60,895 bases of DNA from a virus (Duplodnaviria; Caudoviricetes). The stretch covers positions 1 to 60,895 of the IMG/VR virus record IMGVR_UViG_3300012936_000012, one strand, 5' to 3'. Under the pieces are notes generated by a model that saw only the letters and a list, made by a program, of their open reading frames with translations, was not told the origin of the DNA and ran no database searches. Below, one piece after another: positions 17,144 to 60,557 of this stretch; positions within the stretch are counted from its first letter, which is position 1, and every line of letters begins with the position of its first letter. The position numbers were made by a program, and so were the translations under genes.

Positions 17144-17515
17144 ATGCCTTCAATTAGCGGGTTGTCATTGCCATTAAAGATCACACCACGGGGGGGGGTT
17201 TCTCGTTCAATCGGAATAGAGAAGATTAAACAAAATCTAAAAGCATTAATACTTACTTCTATCGGAGACAGGGTAATGAGTCCCCGGATAGGAACGATGG
17301 GTTATATATACCTTTTTAGAAACATGACATTTGAAGAAAGGAATTTGCTTGAAACCCAAATTGCAACAAACCTAGAGAGAGGTGAGCCAAATGTAATTAT
17401 CACAGAAGTAGACATTTTTGATGTGTCCGATCAAGGCAAAATAAATGTTGTGATAAAATTCAAAATAGATCAATACGAAGAGAATTATGATATCTCAGTA
17501 ATTTTGGAGGCTTGA
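17144..17515 (+). CDS. Baseplate wedge protein gp25/gpW
   Basis: IKQNLKALILTSIGDRVMSPRIG, EPNV. Confidence 0.85.
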   Translation: MPSISGLSLPLKITPRGGVSRSIGIEKIKQNLKALILTSIGDRVMSPRIGTMGYIYLFRNMTFEERNLLETQIATNLERGEPNVIITEVDIFDVSDQGKINVVIKFKIDQYEENYDISVILEA

Positions 17516-54091: not shown

Positions 54092-55519
54092 ATGGCTAAA
54101 AAATGGCTAAAGAAAAAAGATGCTATTAAAGCTTTAGGGTTAACAGGCCCTCAACTCAGATATAGATCTGAAGTTAAGGGAGACATAAAGAGAAGAAAAA
54201 AAGACGGAGTTATTGAGTACAGGGTTCAAGATCTTGTAGAGGAATCAATCGAAGAGACTCCTGAGCCTTTTTTCTTTGATGAAGATGCAAGTGGTTATCA
54301 TTATGATCCAAGTGCAGAACAATACCTTTTCTTTAATTTACCAGATCAACCACCTGTAGTAAGAGTAAGTCGCCAAAAGATTGAGTCTTTAATAAAAGAC
54401 TATTCAAATGAAACGGGAGGTCTTACAGTAAATCAAATTGCAGGTAAATATAAGCTCAGTCGGCCTTCAGTGCAGAGAATCTTGTCATACATGGGTAAGA
54501 CACATGATTCCTCTCCATTTACAAACGAGAAGCTCCAGGAATACTCAGAAGACGATCTAGTTGCAGATTTACTTAGATCAAAAGAACAAAGAGTCTTAGT
54601 TAAAGCTCAACAAAAAAGACTTACACTGTCTCAAAAAAAACTAGACGACATATATTTGGTCAAAGAGTTTGTAAATGAAGTAGCAGACAAAATAAAAACC
54701 GTATCGCTTCCAAAATTGAGTTCTAAGGCCATTAAAAACAAAAAAGGCACATACACTGCAGTGATTGGCTTAACTGACCTCCACATAGGAAAGAGAGGCA
54801 TTGACGGCTTCAATAGTCAGGTAGCATCAAATAGGGCGTTAAAAACGACATCGATAGCTAGAGAAAAAGCATTAAGTATGTGGGGAGTTCCTGATCAATG
54901 GGTTATTACATGTGGAAGCGATATGCTACATGTAGATAACTATCGAGGAACAACTGAGCGAGGAACTCCAATGGATACAGATACCGATCCCGTTTCTATG
55001 CTTGCAATTGCATACGCAACAATGGAAACAATTATTGAACAATTGAAGCAAACCGCACCTGTTAAGGTGGTAGCTATATCGGGTAATCACGATAGGCTTC
55101 TTTCTTCAGTTTTGGGAATGATGTTGTCAGCTAGGTACACAAGTGAAGATTCTGTTTCTATTATTGATGGATCAAAAGGTAGTTCATATATTCGATATGG
55201 AAAAACACTTTTAGGATTTAATCATGGGGACACTATCAAACATGAGAAGTTGCCAAATATTATGGCAGGAGAAAGACCTAAAGATTGGGGTGAATGCCAA
55301 GGTAATTGGGAATGGTTTACTGGCCACTTTCATTGTTTAACTTTAAAAGTACATGAGTACAATGGCTGTCGCGTATGGGTCATGCCTGCTTTATCTGGCA
55401 CAGACAGGTGGCATAAGCTTATGGGGTACAATCTTAATCGAAACCAATTAGCAATATTTAAAGTAGAACCAAACAATGGGGTTTGCGCTTTAGAGTTGAT
55501 CCAAGGAAAAGAGAAATAA
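54092..55519 (+). CDS. HTH plus calcineurin-like metallophosphoesterase
   Basis: DLHIG, GSD..H, GNHD, HGD, GHFH. Confidence 0.8.
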   Translation: MAKKWLKKKDAIKALGLTGPQLRYRSEVKGDIKRRKKDGVIEYRVQDLVEESIEETPEPFFFDEDASGYHYDPSAEQYLFFNLPDQPPVVRVSRQKIESLIKDYSNETGGLTVNQIAGKYKLSRPSVQRILSYMGKTHDSSPFTNEKLQEYSEDDLVADLLRSKEQRVLVKAQQKRLTLSQKKLDDIYLVKEFVNEVADKIKTVSLPKLSSKAIKNKKGTYTAVIGLTDLHIGKRGIDGFNSQVASNRALKTTSIAREKALSMWGVPDQWVITCGSDMLHVDNYRGTTERGTPMDTDTDPVSMLAIAYATMETIIEQLKQTAPVKVVAISGNHDRLLSSVLGMMLSARYTSEDSVSIIDGSKGSSYIRYGKTLLGFNHGDTIKHEKLPNIMAGERPKDWGECQGNWEWFTGHFHCLTLKVHEYNGCRVWVMPALSGTDRWHKLMGYNLNRNQLAIFKVEPNNGVCALELIQGKEK

Positions 55520-56205
55520 TGAGAGTAGATATTTATGATGACAATATTGGTTGTGTTGAATTAATTGATTTCATGGGAGATGACCAACGGGCGGTGGCAA
55601 GTGCAAGGGTATCTTTAGCAAAAGATACTGAGACACTAGATCGTGATATGAATGAAAGAGACTTGAAGTTGATGCGTTTCTTAATTAGAGAGTATCACAC
55701 TTCTCCTTTTGAACATTCAACGGCAACGATGCGCATAGTTTGTCCTTTATTCTGTAGATCTCAAATTATGCGGCACAGGACATTTTCATTTAATGAAGTC
55801 AGTAGAAGGTATACTTCAGAGGATCTCAGATTTTATGTTCCAACTTTATTAAGAAAACAAGCCCAAAAAAATCTTCAGTGTTCAACAAACGAAGAGGTAG
55901 AAGATCCATCTCTTTATGATCTTTATGTGCAAAACACAAATTATGCTCTAGCTAACTATAATAAGTTGATTGAAGGAGGGGTGAGTCGAGAGCAGGCAAG
56001 AATGATTTTACCGCAGTCTATGTACACAACCTTTTGGATGACTGGCAATTTATTGAATTGGGTAAAATTTTTAAAATTAAGATTAGATGAACACACTCAA
56101 CATGAAACTAGGTCTGTTGCAAAAGGGGTTTATATGTGTTTGGCAAACGTATTTCCTTTAACAATGAGTGAGATGTTGAAAAGTCAAAAAGGAGTTATTT
56201 TATGA
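55519..56205 (+). CDS. thyX: Flavin-dependent thymidylate synthase
   Basis: HTSPFEH, QIMRHRTFSFNEVSRRY, EQARMILP, LRLDEHTQHE. Confidence 0.95.
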   Translation: MRVDIYDDNIGCVELIDFMGDDQRAVASARVSLAKDTETLDRDMNERDLKLMRFLIREYHTSPFEHSTATMRIVCPLFCRSQIMRHRTFSFNEVSRRYTSEDLRFYVPTLLRKQAQKNLQCSTNEEVEDPSLYDLYVQNTNYALANYNKLIEGGVSREQARMILPQSMYTTFWMTGNLLNWVKFLKLRLDEHTQHETRSVAKGVYMCLANVFPLTMSEMLKSQKGVIL

Positions 56206-56414
56206 TGACTCGTATAAAACTAAAAGCTAAAAACATGAATGTAAAATTCAAGGAGTTAGCAGATCTCGCAGGGATTTCTTATACTTATACTGTTCAGATT
56301 TTGGCAGGAAAGCGAAGACCGAGTGTTGAAGTAGCAAAGAAGTTAGCAGTAGCTTTTAATAAAATTGTGGGTAAAGAAGAAGTATTTGCAAAAGATTTCA
56401 ATCCTAAATCATAG
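56202..56414 (+). CDS. XRE/Cro-like HTH regulator
   Basis: KELADLAGIS....QILAGKRRPS.EVA.KLA. Confidence 0.8.
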   Translation: MMTRIKLKAKNMNVKFKELADLAGISYTYTVQILAGKRRPSVEVAKKLAVAFNKIVGKEEVFAKDFNPKS

Positions 56415-56465
56415 TTAAACTGAGTTTTGATAACATCAAGTGTACATACAAACAATGGAGGCTGT

Positions 56466-57356
56466 ATGCTTGAGTTAAAAACTATAGAGTGCAGTAAAAA
56501 AACTGTAGATCAACTCCACAGGGTAGGCTCTTTAGATATTGAAGACTATTCTCTTGACCCAAATTCTAATTATTTTCTTTTCAAAGGAGAAGACGGCTCA
56601 TCGGGTATCGCATGTGCAAATGGAGATTACTTAAAACGTGTGAATATGAAAGGTGTCTCTTTTTCTGGAATGAAACCCAAAGATATAACGCAGTCTTGTT
56701 TTTTTCATGCATTGAAAAACTACGATCTTGTTGTTGGATTAGGGGCGGCAGGTACAGGTAAGACCTCGCTTTCTTTAGCATATGCATTGCATCAGCTTTT
56801 TAGAAAAGATATGAATATCGTTTTGTGTAAGCCCACGATTTTTGTGGGGCAGAAAAGTAATGCAATTGGTGCAATACCTGGAGACCACAGAGAAAAACTT
56901 GCAGGATACATTGATTCATATCTAGTTAGCATGAGAAAGATATTGGGAGATTCTGCAGAGCATCATTTATATCAAATGGAAGAAGAAGGAAAACTGCAAT
57001 TTCAACCTTTGGAGTTAATTCGGGGTATGCATTTTGAAGATACAGTTTTGATCATTGATGAAGCACAAAATTGTTCTCCACATGAATTAATGTCAATTAT
57101 TTCTAGGGTTGGTGAAAACTCGACTTGTATTGTCCTAGGAGATCCTTCTCAAATAGATTCTGGTTCTCGATGGAAGGAAACAGGGTTGTTTGTGTTAACA
57201 TGCAGTGATGCTTTTTTTGATAGTGAGTTTTCAATAGGCATCAAGCTTACTGGGCAATACCGGGGGCCGATGGCTACTTTGGCTTCAAATGTATTGAAGG
57301 AGCTACAGGAAGTTGAAGACAGATTTATAGATTCGGATACACTTAATTATGAATGA
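56466..57356 (+). CDS. phoH: PhoH-family ATPase
   Basis: GAAGTGKT, IGAIPG..EK, IRGMHF, IIDEAQN, RVGE, GDPSQID. Confidence 0.9.
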   Translation: MLELKTIECSKKTVDQLHRVGSLDIEDYSLDPNSNYFLFKGEDGSSGIACANGDYLKRVNMKGVSFSGMKPKDITQSCFFHALKNYDLVVGLGAAGTGKTSLSLAYALHQLFRKDMNIVLCKPTIFVGQKSNAIGAIPGDHREKLAGYIDSYLVSMRKILGDSAEHHLYQMEEEGKLQFQPLELIRGMHFEDTVLIIDEAQNCSPHELMSIISRVGENSTCIVLGDPSQIDSGSRWKETGLFVLTCSDAFFDSEFSIGIKLTGQYRGPMATLASNVLKELQEVEDRFIDSDTLNYE

Positions 57357-57537
57357 TAAAATAGGCGAAATTGTTGAAGTGGTATTAGAGGGTAATAGAT
57401 TCCCTGCTGTTATTGTTGGTGTCTTTAAACACACATATGGAGTGCAATGTTTGTTTTATGATAACTATTACTTAATTCCTCATTCCTTTGTATCTTTTGT
57501 CAACATAAATAAACATTATTATGTCCCACACGATTAA
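57349..57537 (+). CDS. Hypothetical small protein
   Basis: 62-aa ORF overlapping the phoH end. Confidence 0.35.
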   Translation: MNDKIGEIVEVVLEGNRFPAVIVGVFKHTYGVQCLFYDNYYLIPHSFVSFVNINKHYYVPHD

Positions 57538-57568
57538 AAGTTGTTGAAAAGACTTTTTTTATTTTTTT
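57536..57568. terminator. Weak candidate bidirectional terminator at the convergence point
   Basis: AAAAGTT-GTTGAAAA-GACTTTT followed by T runs, between convergent operons. Confidence 0.4.
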
Positions 57569-57801
57569 CGATAATGAAGTCCAAGTGCTTCTTTAAGTAT
57601 ATCTTCTTTATCTCTTGATATGTCTATATCAATAAAAAACTCAGAAAGGTTAATTCCAATTTCTGCTGCTTCAACTTGTATTTTTAGTTGTGCAGCAAAA
57701 GGTTGTCTTCCATCATAAATTTTGTTTAAAGAAGACCGAAGATATATCTCTAAATATTCTCCGTTTGTTGCACTAGAAACACTAGGTGTTGCCCAGTTTA
57801 C
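57559..57801 (-). CDS. -1 frame extension (80 codons) of the methyltransferase partner ORF
   Basis: After A10G the -1 frame reads VNWATPSVSSATNGEYLEIYLRSSLNKIYDGRQPFAAQLKIQVEAAEIG...HYRKK*. Confidence 0.6.
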   Translation of the reverse strand, partial: VNWATPSVSSATNGEYLEIYLRSSLNKIYDGRQPFAAQLKIQVEAAEIGINLSEFFIDIDISRDKEDILKEALGLHYRKK

Positions 57802-59474
57802 TTTTTTTTTTCAACTTGTGTTGGTAAATCAGACTCTAACCCCTTCAACGATCTGCCACTTGAGCCTTTGTAATCCCTTGTTTGAGGGGTTGCCCAAGGT
57901 TTTTTGGGGTAGGCTTCTTCGTTGATAACTTGATTATTTATTCCTTGTTGCTTTGAATTTGGACCTCTTTTTTTAAAATCTGAAGCGGTTGGAGTAGCCC
58001 ATCTTTGAGTTTTTTTCTCTTCTATCTCTGCTTCTAATAACAAGTTTGATGATGCTCTTGCTCCTGAGGGCCTATACGCCGGTCCACTTTGATTCCAAAT
58101 CGTTCCATCTGCATTATACAGTTTGTTCGTATTCTCAGAAGGAGTATGAACTCTAGGTGTAGACCAATTTTTTAGCTCTTGTTCACTTGGTACTTTTGCA
58201 GAAGGATTCTGTTGAAAGTAAAAATTTAATTTTTTAGCAACTTCTACTTTATAAGGGTCTACCTGCTCTTGTAAAGTATGAGGAGCAGTCCTACCTCTTC
58301 TACCTCCTCCAGTTAAGTTTTTTATCATTGAGTCAACAGATCTGTTTTCTATTGTTGTCATTGTTGTCGGAGTTGACCAATTGTTTCCACATGATTCTGA
58401 TTGCTTTTGTTGCCGTTCCTGGAACAACTCCATTTCCGAGCATTCTGAGTTCATCTGTTCTATTGTCAGTACGTGTGTACAATTCGGAGATGTCCACCCC
58501 ACAGGTACACCCATCAAGGTCTCCACCCAACGAGGATTCAATCTCCCCACATACGACCCCATGTGAGCTTGATCCGGCAGTAGGTTTCGTGGGTTCTTTT
58601 CTTGACTGTGTTTGGGGTACTTCCCCTTCCAATCCCGACTTGCCGGTGTGGCCCATGACTGTTCTTGGGGGTTCCCACGAGTATTGACCAACTCCTCTTG
58701 CTGCGGGGTAAGCAACCCATCTTTCATTTGGCAAACCTGGTTGTCTAGTCTGAACTGCCACTCCTTCTTGAACTTCCCCTCTTTTGTCAACACGTTCGGC
58801 TCTCCATAATTGCTCATCGTTGATCTCGGAGTCCCCCAAGATAGGTCTGAATCCTCTAGAGAGTTTTGAAGTAATAAAGTCTCTTCCTTGCTTGTTGAGT
58901 CTTGAATTGACACCAAGTATAAAGACTCGTTTTCGTTGATGGGGCGCACCGACTTCACTCGCTGAGAATACGCCTGCCGTTGCTTCGTAACCCAATCTTT
59001 CCAACTCTTTGAGGACATGGTGCAGAACACTTGTTCCTTCTGGGTCAGCCCATGTGTTTCCTTTGAGCTTTGAGCTGATGATTCCTTCAACGTTTTCAAA
59101 GAAAACAATGGGAGGTCTTCCCAACTGTTTGATTCCTTCAACGATGTACGGCCACAGGTGTCTTGGGTCTTCACTTCCATCCCTTCTTCCTGCTTGACTA
59201 AATGGCTGACAAGGGAAGCCTCCACTGAGGATATCCACTTTTCCATTAAAGAGTCCCCAATTGAAGGTTTTAAGATTCGTCCAAATAGGAGCGACATCAA
59301 TCCACCCTTTTTCCATCTTAGCAACCAAGTTTTGGCAGACGAAGGTTTCGATCTCCACATAAGTGACTGTTCGGATAGGCAAGCCAGCTCGTTTAAATCC
59401 GAGGTCAATTCCTCCGTATCCGGAGCAGAGGGAGATATGGGTGAGTTCGGAAGGTTTTTTGGTAATATCCACAT
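57798..59474 (-). CDS. Overlapping-frame C5-MTase partner subunit: motif IX plus six W-x-T-P modules
   Basis: RLNPRWVETLMGVPVGWT; WGTP, WATP, WSTP, WSTP, WATP, WATP repeats. Confidence 0.7.
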   Translation of the reverse strand: MWILPKNLPNSPISPSAPDTEELTSDLNELACLSEQSLMWRSKPSSAKTWLLRWKKGGLMSLLFGRILKPSIGDSLMEKWISSVEASLVSHLVKQEEGMEVKTQDTCGRTSLKESNSWEDLPLFSLKTLKESSAQSSKETHGLTQKEQVFCTMSSKSWKDWVTKQRQAYSQRVKSVRPINENESLYLVSIQDSTSKEETLLLQNSLEDSDLSWGTPRSTMSNYGEPNVLTKEGKFKKEWQFRLDNQVCQMKDGLLTPQQEELVNTRGNPQEQSWATPASRDWKGKYPKHSQEKNPRNLLPDQAHMGSYVGRLNPRWVETLMGVPVGWTSPNCTHVLTIEQMNSECSEMELFQERQQKQSESCGNNWSTPTTMTTIENRSVDSMIKNLTGGGRRGRTAPHTLQEQVDPYKVEVAKKLNFYFQQNPSAKVPSEQELKNWSTPRVHTPSENTNKLYNADGTIWNQSGPAYRPSGARASSNLLLEAEIEEKKTQRWATPTASDFKKRGPNSKQQGINNQVINEEAYPKKPWATPQTRDYKGSSGRSLKGLESDLPTQVEKKK

Positions 59475-59478
59475 TCAT
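58333..59478 (-). CDS. DNA (cytosine-5)-methyltransferase catalytic subunit lacking motif IX
   Basis: SLCSGYGG (I), GGFPCQPFSQAG (IV), ENVEG (VI), PHQRKRVFI (VIII), LRMLGNGVVP (X). Confidence 0.9.
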   Translation of the reverse strand: MNVDITKKPSELTHISLCSGYGGIDLGFKRAGLPIRTVTYVEIETFVCQNLVAKMEKGWIDVAPIWTNLKTFNWGLFNGKVDILSGGFPCQPFSQAGRRDGSEDPRHLWPYIVEGIKQLGRPPIVFFENVEGIISSKLKGNTWADPEGTSVLHHVLKELERLGYEATAGVFSASEVGAPHQRKRVFILGVNSRLNKQGRDFITSKLSRGFRPILGDSEINDEQLWRAERVDKRGEVQEGVAVQTRQPGLPNERWVAYPAARGVGQYSWEPPRTVMGHTGKSGLEGEVPQTQSRKEPTKPTAGSSSHGVVCGEIESSLGGDLDGCTCGVDISELYTRTDNRTDELRMLGNGVVPGTATKAIRIMWKQLVNSDNNDNNRKQIC

Positions 59479-59488
59479 TGTAGTCCTT

Positions 59489-59968
59489 TCATGTAGTTTG
59501 TCTTAAGCGTTTTCTTGCTCTATATAAGCGTACTTTGTACGCAGATTCGGAAACCCCGATTTCTTTTGATGCTTTCTCAGCTTTGATGCCTTTAACAGCA
59601 TTAACAATTACATCTTTATCAAAATCATTAAGTTTATTAAAATTATCTATAACAGTATTAAGTTCGGTTTTGTCAATAAATTTCTTTTCTGGTGTTGAGT
59701 AATCAATTAGTTCTAGGTCGAAAAAGCGTGTTATTTGCTTATCTCTGTACGTATCTCTTCGTAGTTTTTCATTGCATAGGTTTTTTGCTATTTTATATAT
59801 CCAAGTACTTAATTTACACTTTTTTTTAAATTTATGAACATTTGCTAAAGCTAATACAAATACATCCTGTGTAAATTCTTCAGAAGTAAATCGATCATAA
59901 TACGGAGTAAAGATTGCCATGATTTTGTATTTTAGTTTTGGATACAAGGCTTCAATTTCTTTCTTCAC
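59489..59968 (-). CDS. ECF-type RNA polymerase sigma factor
   Basis: EEFTQDVF, LSTWIYKIAKN (region 2); EIGVSESAYKVRLYRARKRLR (region 4). Confidence 0.85.
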   Translation of the reverse strand: MKKEIEALYPKLKYKIMAIFTPYYDRFTSEEFTQDVFVLALANVHKFKKKCKLSTWIYKIAKNLCNEKLRRDTYRDKQITRFFDLELIDYSTPEKKFIDKTELNTVIDNFNKLNDFDKDVIVNAVKGIKAEKASKEIGVSESAYKVRLYRARKRLRQTT

Positions 59969-60557
59969 TTTTTTTTCCTTTTAAGGTTGTTGAAAAGTCT
60001 TTAACTATATTAAGAACACTATCTAAAATATTTTCTTTACTATCTGATCCATTTATCAATACAATTTCAACCCCTTTAGCTCCCATATCCTCAAGAAAAA
60101 GTTCATAGGCTACTTTTTGGCGCAACAGGAAACCATAGTTAACATCTTGATCAATATTTCCACGGGCTTTAACTCGACTCATAGCTTGCTCAGTTTCAAT
60201 ATCAAGAAAGAAGATCACATCAGGCAAAGGAGATGATTCAAGAAAAATTCGGCGTGCCTCTAAATAAAGGTCAAATTCAGAGCAAGAAAGATCACCATAA
60301 GAAAAACCAACTCTAGCAAACACACTATCAGACCAAACACTTCGATCATAAACATTGATCATACCAGGCAAAGAATCCCGCCATTGGTTATACCTAGACT
60401 TCAAAAACTTTATCTGAGTTAAAAACCCATTATCTACTTCACTTTCAAACATAATGGCCTCGTCAAAAACATTAAAATTTTCGGCGCACTGAAGACCTTT
60501 AACTAAACTACTTTTACCAACTCCCATAATCCCTTCCACACATATGCGAATTGTCAT
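59952..60557 (-). CDS. Deoxynucleoside kinase (dNK family)
   Basis: ICVEGIMGVGKSS, DRSVWSD.VF, PDVIFFLD, RVKARG; GGGAG RBS. Confidence 0.85.
   Translation of the reverse strand: MTIRICVEGIMGVGKSSLVKGLQCAENFNVFDEAIMFESEVDNGFLTQIKFLKSRYNQWRDSLPGMINVYDRSVWSDSVFARVGFSYGDLSCSEFDLYLEARRIFLESSPLPDVIFFLDIETEQAMSRVKARGNIDQDVNYGFLLRQKVAYELFLEDMGAKGVEIVLINGSDSKENILDSVLNIVKDFSTTLKGKKSEERN

Follow-up and report, generated by a model that had tools for sequence, protein, structure and literature searches.

We analyzed a methyltransferase locus on the minus strand of the IMG/VR viral contig IMGVR_UViG_3300012936_000012 (Caudoviricetes), a linear contig with a completeness estimate of 63% whose whole stretch of 60,895 nucleotides (nt) is hereafter called the window. 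The best explanation of the sequence is that one stretch of DNA is read in two frames to give the two polypeptides of a phage C5 DNA methyltransferase: alpha, an open reading frame (ORF) of 381 amino acids (aa) in frame A (58333..59478), and beta, an ORF of 558 aa in frame B (A+1; 57798..59474). Beta ends on a run of ten A residues (A10), beyond which a homologous terminal module continues in the -1 frame. With a probability of roughly 0.5, we propose that this tail is made in a useful fraction of beta by slippage or -1 frameshifting, yielding two isoforms. Coordinates are those of the window, and all features of the locus lie on its minus strand.

Two overlapping frames of a methyltransferase locus

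Alpha contains the large domain of C5 DNA methyltransferases, as indicated by matches to PF00145 (aa 13-205, E = 8.6e-38), TIGR00675 (107.9 bits against a cut-off of 100.65) and the M.HaeIII and M.HhaI chains. Motifs I (59427-59410), IV (PCQ; 59217-59197), VI (ENV; 59097-59083) and VIII (58938-58921) are all located in this chain, followed after motif VIII by a linker without residue-level constraint, by a conserved motif P..RG..QY.WEPPR (58710-58663) and by motif X (58440-58420). Frame B gave no match in Pfam or NCBIfam, nor did beta 359-558 when searched against Pfam; beta carries six WxTP modules (58838-58827, 58655-58644, 58379-58368, 58166-58155, 58001-57990 and 57896-57885) together with motif IX (58541-58491), which two of the modules precede. 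Motifs IX and X do not both share the chain of motifs I-VIII: X is in alpha and IX in beta, one frame apart. The profile phrog_1008 ("DNA methyltransferase", 329 positions) spans this boundary, its positions 261-280 matching beta aa 310-329 (motif IX) and its positions 292-322 matching alpha aa 338-368 (motif X). Since this match is split over two frames, motifs I-VIII and X are read in frame A, and motif IX and the WxTP modules in frame B.

The two minus-strand frames are open together over ~1,140 nt, and beta extends 540 nt beyond alpha, where four more WxTP modules are found. Homologues of beta amount to 1591 called proteins (clusters), none of the 120 listed carrying a Pfam domain. An earlier interpretation made from the letters alone (the sequence-only reading) had treated the 558-aa ORF as a methyltransferase by itself. 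The ORF does not hold that role alone; what stands is its place as the beta part of an overlapping two-ORF enzyme, with motif IX in it.

Both frames open at a shared start, ATGAATGTG (59470..59478), which offers alpha an ATG at 59478-59476 (or a GTG at 59472-59470) and beta an ATG at 59474-59472, 4 nt downstream of the alpha start; a Shine-Dalgarno-like AAAGGA lies 5 nt upstream. Across the related loci (66 distinct sequences, the window counted in), the start codons of the two frames are 2-5 nt apart via co-varying contexts: NATGTG in 52 loci, ATTGTG in 3, AGTGTG in 1, ATGACATGG in 6 and TTGACGTGG in 2, the other two being a truncated locus and L082. PMC9841429 reports that AUGUG and GUGUG allow initiation in both frames in E. 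coli.

The relatives were collected by scanning IMG/VR with an alignment of frame-B proteins, where 512 stretches matched, 476 encoded relatives and 79 loci were kept; the corresponding search with frame A returned 16 loci, with both frames open in all of the 13 matches listed. With frame A counted as complete when it has PCQ, ENV and GNxV, and frame B when it has motif IX and no fewer than 300 codons, 61 of the 66 distinct loci are complete in both. The exceptions are L038 (frame B broken), L065, L067 (which is cut by the contig end), and L075 and L082 (motif X in frame B). The same layout occurs in phage C75C1 (OQ984151), in which the +1 frame of an annotated 480-aa methyltransferase stays open for 460 codons and encodes WxTP modules as well as motif IX. 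The number of WxTP modules ranges from 0 to 6 among the relatives. A search of the gene against phages by blastn gave one weak match only. A multiply frameshifted pseudogene or an error-ridden assembly was also considered for the locus, and was ruled out by C75C1 and 60 further loci that show the same two open frames.

To quantify how far both frames are kept open, we counted stop codons in the 66 loci after omission of L038, L065, L067, L075, L082, L052 and L053 (the last two 5'-truncated), with expectations taken from synonymous shuffles. The +1 frame of the N-terminal 185 codons contains 0 stops against 194 expected (60 loci), and the -1 frame from the first WxTP module to motif IX contains 0 against 197 expected (55 loci); because the loci are interrelated and were selected by protein match, they are not independent trials. 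For the window alone, the same two tests gave P = 0.0025 and P = 0.0015. Past the stop of alpha, the -1 frame of the window has 14 stops, like ordinary coding sequence.

Substitutions counted by codon position over 235 locus pairs (75-98.5% identical) show where each frame is constrained. In the N-terminal part, the rate peaks at the third position of frame A (0.297 versus 0.108 and 0.181); from the first WxTP module to motif IX, it peaks at the third position of frame B (0.374 versus 0.136 and 0.115); and after motif IX, it peaks again at the third position of frame A (0.456). In the closest pair, the window and L003, frame A positions 1, 2 and 3 changed 20, 6 and 8 times over codons 201-350. 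Since the wobble substitutions switch from A to B and back to A along the gene, the middle of alpha and the first ~200 codons of beta are open but without residue-level constraint, the motif P..RG..QY.WEPPR of alpha forming a conserved island inside the part governed by frame B.

From structural modelling, we infer that alpha and beta may associate. The complex predicted by ESMFold2 for alpha and beta 200-350 reached an interaction prediction score from aligned errors (ipSAE) of 0.88 in 3 runs, the best of three controls reaching 0.00; 58 of 80 solved complexes and 2 of 110 mismatched pairs attain the mark set for this score. At least 55% of the contacts are shared among the runs, and the predicted local distance difference test (pLDDT) score of the partner is at least 53. 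Predicted contacts connect alpha 173-182, 253-276 and 328-354 with beta 271-282 (a WxTP module) and 302-340 (motif IX), and the P..RG..QY.WEPPR motif touches beta motif IX. The predicted complex supports binding of the two chains, with the reservation that its score, obtained with author-made alignments, may reflect likeness to solved single-chain C5 methyltransferases. Whole beta modelled alone reached a pLDDT of only 36.7, too poor for structure search, which counts against the best explanation as a whole.

A locus of this kind could also yield one chain in place of two subunits, through two programmed frameshifts, from A to B after motif VIII and from B to A between motifs IX and X. Such a chain would suit the A>B>A switch in selection, and the beta and alpha matches are colinear with motifs IX and X of phrog_1008, a single-frame family. 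It would not, however, need either frame to be open outside the part used, yet both are open from end to end in the 61 loci, each part having 0 stops where ~195 would be expected, and a start codon is kept in both frames through the co-varying contexts. The conserved alpha island within the frame-B part, and its modelled contact with beta motif IX, likewise speak for two partners, and M.EcoHK31I works as two polypeptides in the account given in passages of PMC2836561. We consider the single chain improbable.

The A10 run and the module behind it

The 558-aa ORF terminates GTT GAA AAA AAA AAG TAA, with its stop at 57800-57798. The A10 run occupies 57802..57811 (T10 on the plus strand), and the zero frame of beta reads the heptamer A_AAA_AAG at 57807-57801. 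The -1 frame is open for 80 codons, from GTA at 57801 to 57562, with a stop at 57561-57559, and for 83 codons when the three AAA codons of the run are included; one extra A in the run (A11) joins beta to these 80 codons. The extension (57562..57801) combines a seventh WxTP motif with a helical terminal module and lies in the same phase as alpha. On all these points, namely the A10 end of the ORF, the 80 open codons behind it and the slippery heptamer, the sequence-only reading proved correct, as did its count of the added module as the seventh, six [WY]xTP motifs preceding it in beta.

The other two frames of this stretch hold open pieces of 15-30 codons only. The extension had been reported as missing from the ORF track, and it is indeed absent, because the stretch contains no ATG, GTG or TTG. 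Translation of the extension on its own was ruled out for the same lack of a start in the 83 open codons; the homologue in the related locus L106 does have an ATG. The sequence-only reading had further placed the end of the extension next to a convergent terminator, and a simple scan of 57250-57700 found 0 terminator-like sites.

The run is the sole homopolymer of at least 10 in the 60,895-base window, which has 12 runs of at least 8. Taken alone it is not improbable, because Markov-1 simulations of the window give ~2 A/T runs of at least 10, with a probability of 0.88 for at least one. The non-chance point is the position of A10, exactly at the frame change of a homologous module. The sole other homopolymer of at least 9 in the window is a G9 run at 17190-17198, near the start of a 123-aa ORF (17144..17515) in a plus-strand gene block.

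That the extension is a real coding sequence belonging to the upstream ORF, as had been suggested, was borne out by homology: BLASTP aligned it end to end with residues 477-552 of the 555-aa protein P0107 (E = 7e-18, 41% identity). The last two modules follow in the same order in the window and in P0107, and the preceding module of P0107 also resembles that of the window. Alignment A3, which sets the extension against the tails that L020, L021, L029 (two copies), L040 and L046 carry in frame, has nine invariant columns and offered no conserved stretch suited to a search for related loci. In the relatives, the module is always located in the C-terminal part of beta, past the other WxTP modules. 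Searches of Pfam, NCBIfam and PHROGs with the extension returned no significant family, and a search of viral contigs with the extension alone gave 49 pattern matches and 0 relatives.

The AlphaFold2 model of the extension comprises 4 helices (pLDDT 73), with the WxTP part below 50, and Foldseek comparison of this model with the PDB gave no match at E<=0.001. The sequence-only reading had assigned the module to an extra methylation specificity, an idea that presumably traces to the multispecific methyltransferases SPR, phi3T and rho11s. These Bacillus phage enzymes carry variable tandem short modules between motifs VIII and IX, and are single chains with another target recognition domain (TRD) consensus. 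The extension differs in kind from the RD.KG-type WxTP modules and follows them, and the proposal of an extra specificity therefore found no support: the predicted structure is that of a distinct helical terminal module without structural match, C-terminal in the beta of relatives.

To check the length of the tract, we used assembled Logan contigs of four runs (X1-X4), all marine metagenomes, at a depth of 2-8. The X2 contig (record 6; 1572 nt) spans 57300-57960 and the X4 contig (record 15; 533 nt) spans 57395-57927; both have A10 with 0 gaps, so that A10 is the assembled state in all three assemblies crossing the run. X2 and X4 stem from a different study than the window and share two differences from it within the extension (57634 and 57736), both at third positions and synonymous in the extension frame; because the window lacks these single-nucleotide polymorphisms (SNPs), the two contigs are not copies of it. 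The contigs of X1 and X3 break off at the run or next to it (57799/57834 and 57806) at a depth of 2-5, and we draw no inference from them, nor from parts of the stretch left uncovered in X1-X4.

Two further contig matches were recorded. At 57602-57635, contigs from X2-X4 with a depth of 200-400 align over these 34 bases alone, with 4 mismatches, before running into unrelated sequence; they probably come from an abundant organism that matches by chance or through low complexity. At 58173-58672, a 671-nt X4 contig is ~90% identical, with 47 differences and compensating +1/-1 indels at 58516/58521, representing a diverged co-occurring relative of the same gene.

Proposed slippage at the run and its alternatives

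In the mechanism we propose, the Lys-rich linker before the terminal module is an A10 tract, one short of the in-frame A11, so that standard decoding stops at the TAA and gives the 558-aa beta. Some transcripts would gain one A on the run through transcriptional slippage, and/or ribosomes would slip by -1 as two Lys tRNAs re-pair on A_AAA_AAG. Either event would lead to the same 638-aa beta with the terminal module, and the outcome would be a short (558-aa) and a long (638-aa) isoform. Slippage at A10 and use of the long form would follow by analogy with systems described in passages of PMC5009743, in which A_AAA_AAG, the natural dnaX site, shifts more readily than any other heptamer tested in E. 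coli, and tracts of nine A's or T's give rise to transcripts carrying additional bases. The same passages report that slippage in Shigella spa13 places a C-terminal extension on 25-30% of the product, and that about half of bacteria have a single tRNA-Lys.

A predicted hairpin with 11 pairs, one bulge and a 3-nt loop (57772..57797) starts 3-4 nt past the heptamer; the 131-nt fold has an energy of -26.9 kcal/mol (z = -2.66 against 200 shuffles). The sequence of the tail itself also appears to favor its use: it is intact, it keeps the W-x-T-P residues, and its population SNPs are synonymous.

Several observations weigh against this reading. No Shine-Dalgarno-like element is visible in the 20 nt upstream of the heptamer, the hairpin spacer is shorter than that of dnaX, and the window contains no tRNA gene. 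The site and its frame arrangement are not conserved among the relatives: seven other contig lineages have an in-frame tail (L020, L021, L029, L032/33, L040/60, L046 and L068; for L032/33 and L068 this status comes from the A4 scan and coordinate arithmetic), as do the proteins P0107, P0012, P0007, P0033, P0003 and P0004, and among the 66 sequences the tail is out of frame only in the window. In L106, the -1 frame meets a stop three codons past an A9 run, at the expected W codon, and the tail has its own ATG. The notion of recoding as a conserved signal was thus not upheld by the relatives. Finally, the window diverges from X2/X4 by 2 of 661 bases; because this divergence is so small, the statement that A10 is kept covers little time. 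The uniqueness of the out-of-frame state and the small divergence covered both weigh against use of the tail.

L106, the locus of P0003, is the sole metagenome relative of the tail (78% identity over 76 residues). Relative to it, the extension has 17, 11 and 33 substitutions at codon positions 1, 2 and 3, with 25 of the 76 codons differing synonymously and 17 non-synonymously. At the DNA level, the window and L106 become homologous precisely at the A run: upstream of it the two are unrelated, and downstream they are ~80% identical. Beta of L106 ends on the A9 run, with the tail in the -1 frame there too; L106 has lost the W-x-T-P residues, which the window tail keeps. The L106 tail continues into a further domain that matches only phrog_13182, a family without assigned function, and A9 runs at L106 2480-2488 and 2752-2760 encode Lys linkers flanking the tail module. 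P0004, P0007 and P0033 carry the tail joined in frame to an additional ~100-aa domain (phrog_13182), which is a separate ORF in L003. On the basis of the window/L106 comparison, A-rich Lys linkers appear to be seams where modules are joined, split and re-framed, and module fusion and fission at such linkers looks recurrent in the sequences compared.

The strongest alternative, which we rate as possible but clearly behind slippage, is a recent plain 1-nt deletion in an AAA Lys linker, leaving beta truncated at 558 aa, the tail silent and not yet decayed, and any slippage product as noise. The restriction of the out-of-frame state to the window lineage fits this account, as do the Lys-rich A runs at several module junctions (the two A9 runs of L106 among them), because of which indels are to be expected there. 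A tail-less beta would be viable, since many relatives have beta ORFs that finish without any tail, and no clear set of the stimulators typical of programmed sites was found near A10. A silent tail is harder to reconcile with a sequence that remains open for 83 codons, retains the W-x-T-P lost in L106 and ends where P0107 ends, and in which both population SNPs (2/2) are synonymous. True silence is also unlikely because A10 with A_AAA_AAG would be expected to give a sizeable shifted fraction, judging from passages of PMC5009743.

Variation of the tract at the DNA level, with replication slippage maintaining both A10 and A11 genomes and switching the tail off and on between virions, would suit the longest homopolymer in the window. 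The ends of the X1 and X3 contigs at or beside the run could be read in this sense, and may equally be graph ambiguity or merely the low depth. The window, X2 and X4 all have A10, a result that is weak either way, given that contigs drop minor variants; we think this explanation improbable. An assembly or sequencing error, with a true tract of A11 and beta as one continuous 638-aa ORF, is very improbable: a ten-base homopolymer in metagenomes of low depth (2-8) invites such an error and A11 would restore the in-frame layout of the relatives, but two contigs of another study cross the tract with 0 gaps and with SNPs absent from the window, and no other split gene is apparent in its ORF map.

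Beyond slippage as such, a bolder extension can be formulated for the several hundred phage lineages with this two-ORF enzyme, in which beta would be a re-shufflable WxTP array whose AAA-rich Lys linkers are built-in slip sites for adding, dropping and dosing modules. A10 would then be a working dose-setter for a terminal module with an effect on the targets of methylation or on the way the enzyme acts. Changes in module content would then arise over evolution by indels and recombination, and within one infection by slippage. We regard this extension as speculative and rather unlikely.

Known systems, genomic context and significance

The closest known parallel is M.EcoHK31I of E. coli HK31 (recognition sequence YGGCCR), a two-polypeptide C5 methyltransferase described in passages of PMC2836561 and PMC3404938, both polypeptides being needed. 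By layout, the window enzyme is like it, with beta read in the other frame of the alpha gene and carrying motif IX, and alpha carrying motifs I-VIII and X. The first 42 aa of M.EcoHK31I beta are dispensable in vitro, as stated in part of PMC2836561, which parallels the unconstrained N-terminal part of the window beta. According to the same passages, M.EcoHK31I beta is nested wholly within alpha, and alpha is said to hold the TRD, whereas the window beta starts beside the alpha start. Unlike M.EcoHK31I, the window beta places two WxTP modules ahead of motif IX and continues for 540 nt beyond alpha, with four more modules and a frameshifted tail.

A related arrangement is found in Paenibacillus larvae phages. 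In phage Leyra (LEYRA_61 / LEYRA_62), a 345-aa C5 methyltransferase ORF contains a nested +1-frame ORF of 234 aa with three WxTP modules and motif IX, and both ORFs are annotated as DNA-cytosine methyltransferase. In these phages, beta starts inside alpha past motif I and lacks both a C-terminal extension and an A run. The passages of the genome paper on these phages (PMC6070908) that concern methyltransferases or frameshifts do not discuss the overlap. In the literature searched, we found no description of the two-frame layout or of the WxTP arrays in the phage family.

The two loci with motif X in frame B present a different division. In L075:3419-4728 and L082:3449-4713, the frame-B ORF closes with motif X (LGNGVVP type), and frame A comes to an early stop, after 280 and 229 codons. 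This split into I-VIII and IX-X resembles M.AquI rather than M.EcoHK31I. The AquI subunits, split in the variable region, are encoded by consecutive genes, not by overlapping frames. Passages of PMC3404938 describe M.AquI as a heterodimeric C5 methyltransferase.

The candidate slip site is like that of E. coli dnaX in having A_AAA_AAG in the zero frame and, by prediction, a downstream hairpin, as dnaX is portrayed in passages of PMC5009743. It is unlike dnaX in having no upstream Shine-Dalgarno-like element, a shorter spacer and no conservation in relatives, and the dnaX shift shortens its product, whereas that in the window would lengthen it. Slippage on A/T runs is known from Thermus dnaX, Shigella spa13, insertion sequence (IS) elements and the rescue of poly(A) indels in Buchnera and Blochmannia (passages of PMC5009743). 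The window shares with these systems an A run of at least 9 and a frame restored by one extra A; an extension on a fraction of the product, as in spa13, would follow.

The overlapping alpha/beta plan is therefore already known from one enzyme, M.EcoHK31I, and slippage at A runs and at A_AAA_AAG is textbook knowledge. The variant in the window is distinguished by the double start shared by alpha and beta, the variable WxTP array on beta, a beta that outruns alpha, and a last module behind a candidate slip site.

The two-frame gene was also observed in L107-L117, on metagenome-assembled genome (MAG) contigs labelled Candidatus Fonsibacter, Saccharibacteria, Shimia, Lentisphaeraceae, Verrucomicrobia, Bacteroidales and Nitrospira, as well as in Geminisphaera colitermitum TAV2; these copies are presumably prophages or binned phage contigs. 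In the window, the neighboring ORFs (54092-57356 and 59489-60557), judged by eye, resemble a ThyX-type thymidylate synthase (55483..56205) and a PhoH-like ATPase (56427..57356) on one side, and a sigma-factor-like ORF (59489..59968) and a deoxynucleoside-kinase-like ORF (59952..60557) on the other. In L106 (L106:2-193), the C-terminal end of another C5 methyltransferase, whose motifs IX and X share one frame, lies just upstream of the sigma-factor-like gene; the window has a 201-aa ORF there.

The overlap of ~1.1 kb on the same strand, with its frame-switching selection, constitutes an unusually clean system for dual-coding constraint and for double initiation of the AUGUG type. If the A10 run is used, the window would provide a phage example in which slippage adds a whole domain to a methyltransferase subunit; an unused run shows how A runs in Lys linkers split modular genes and bring them together again. 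The extent of the family (476 IMG/VR stretches, 1591 protein clusters and the MAG copies) may be unrecognized. Gene callers choose one frame, so that the other is lost or beta is called hypothetical. Recognizing the alpha/beta layout would name a large set of viral "dark" proteins.

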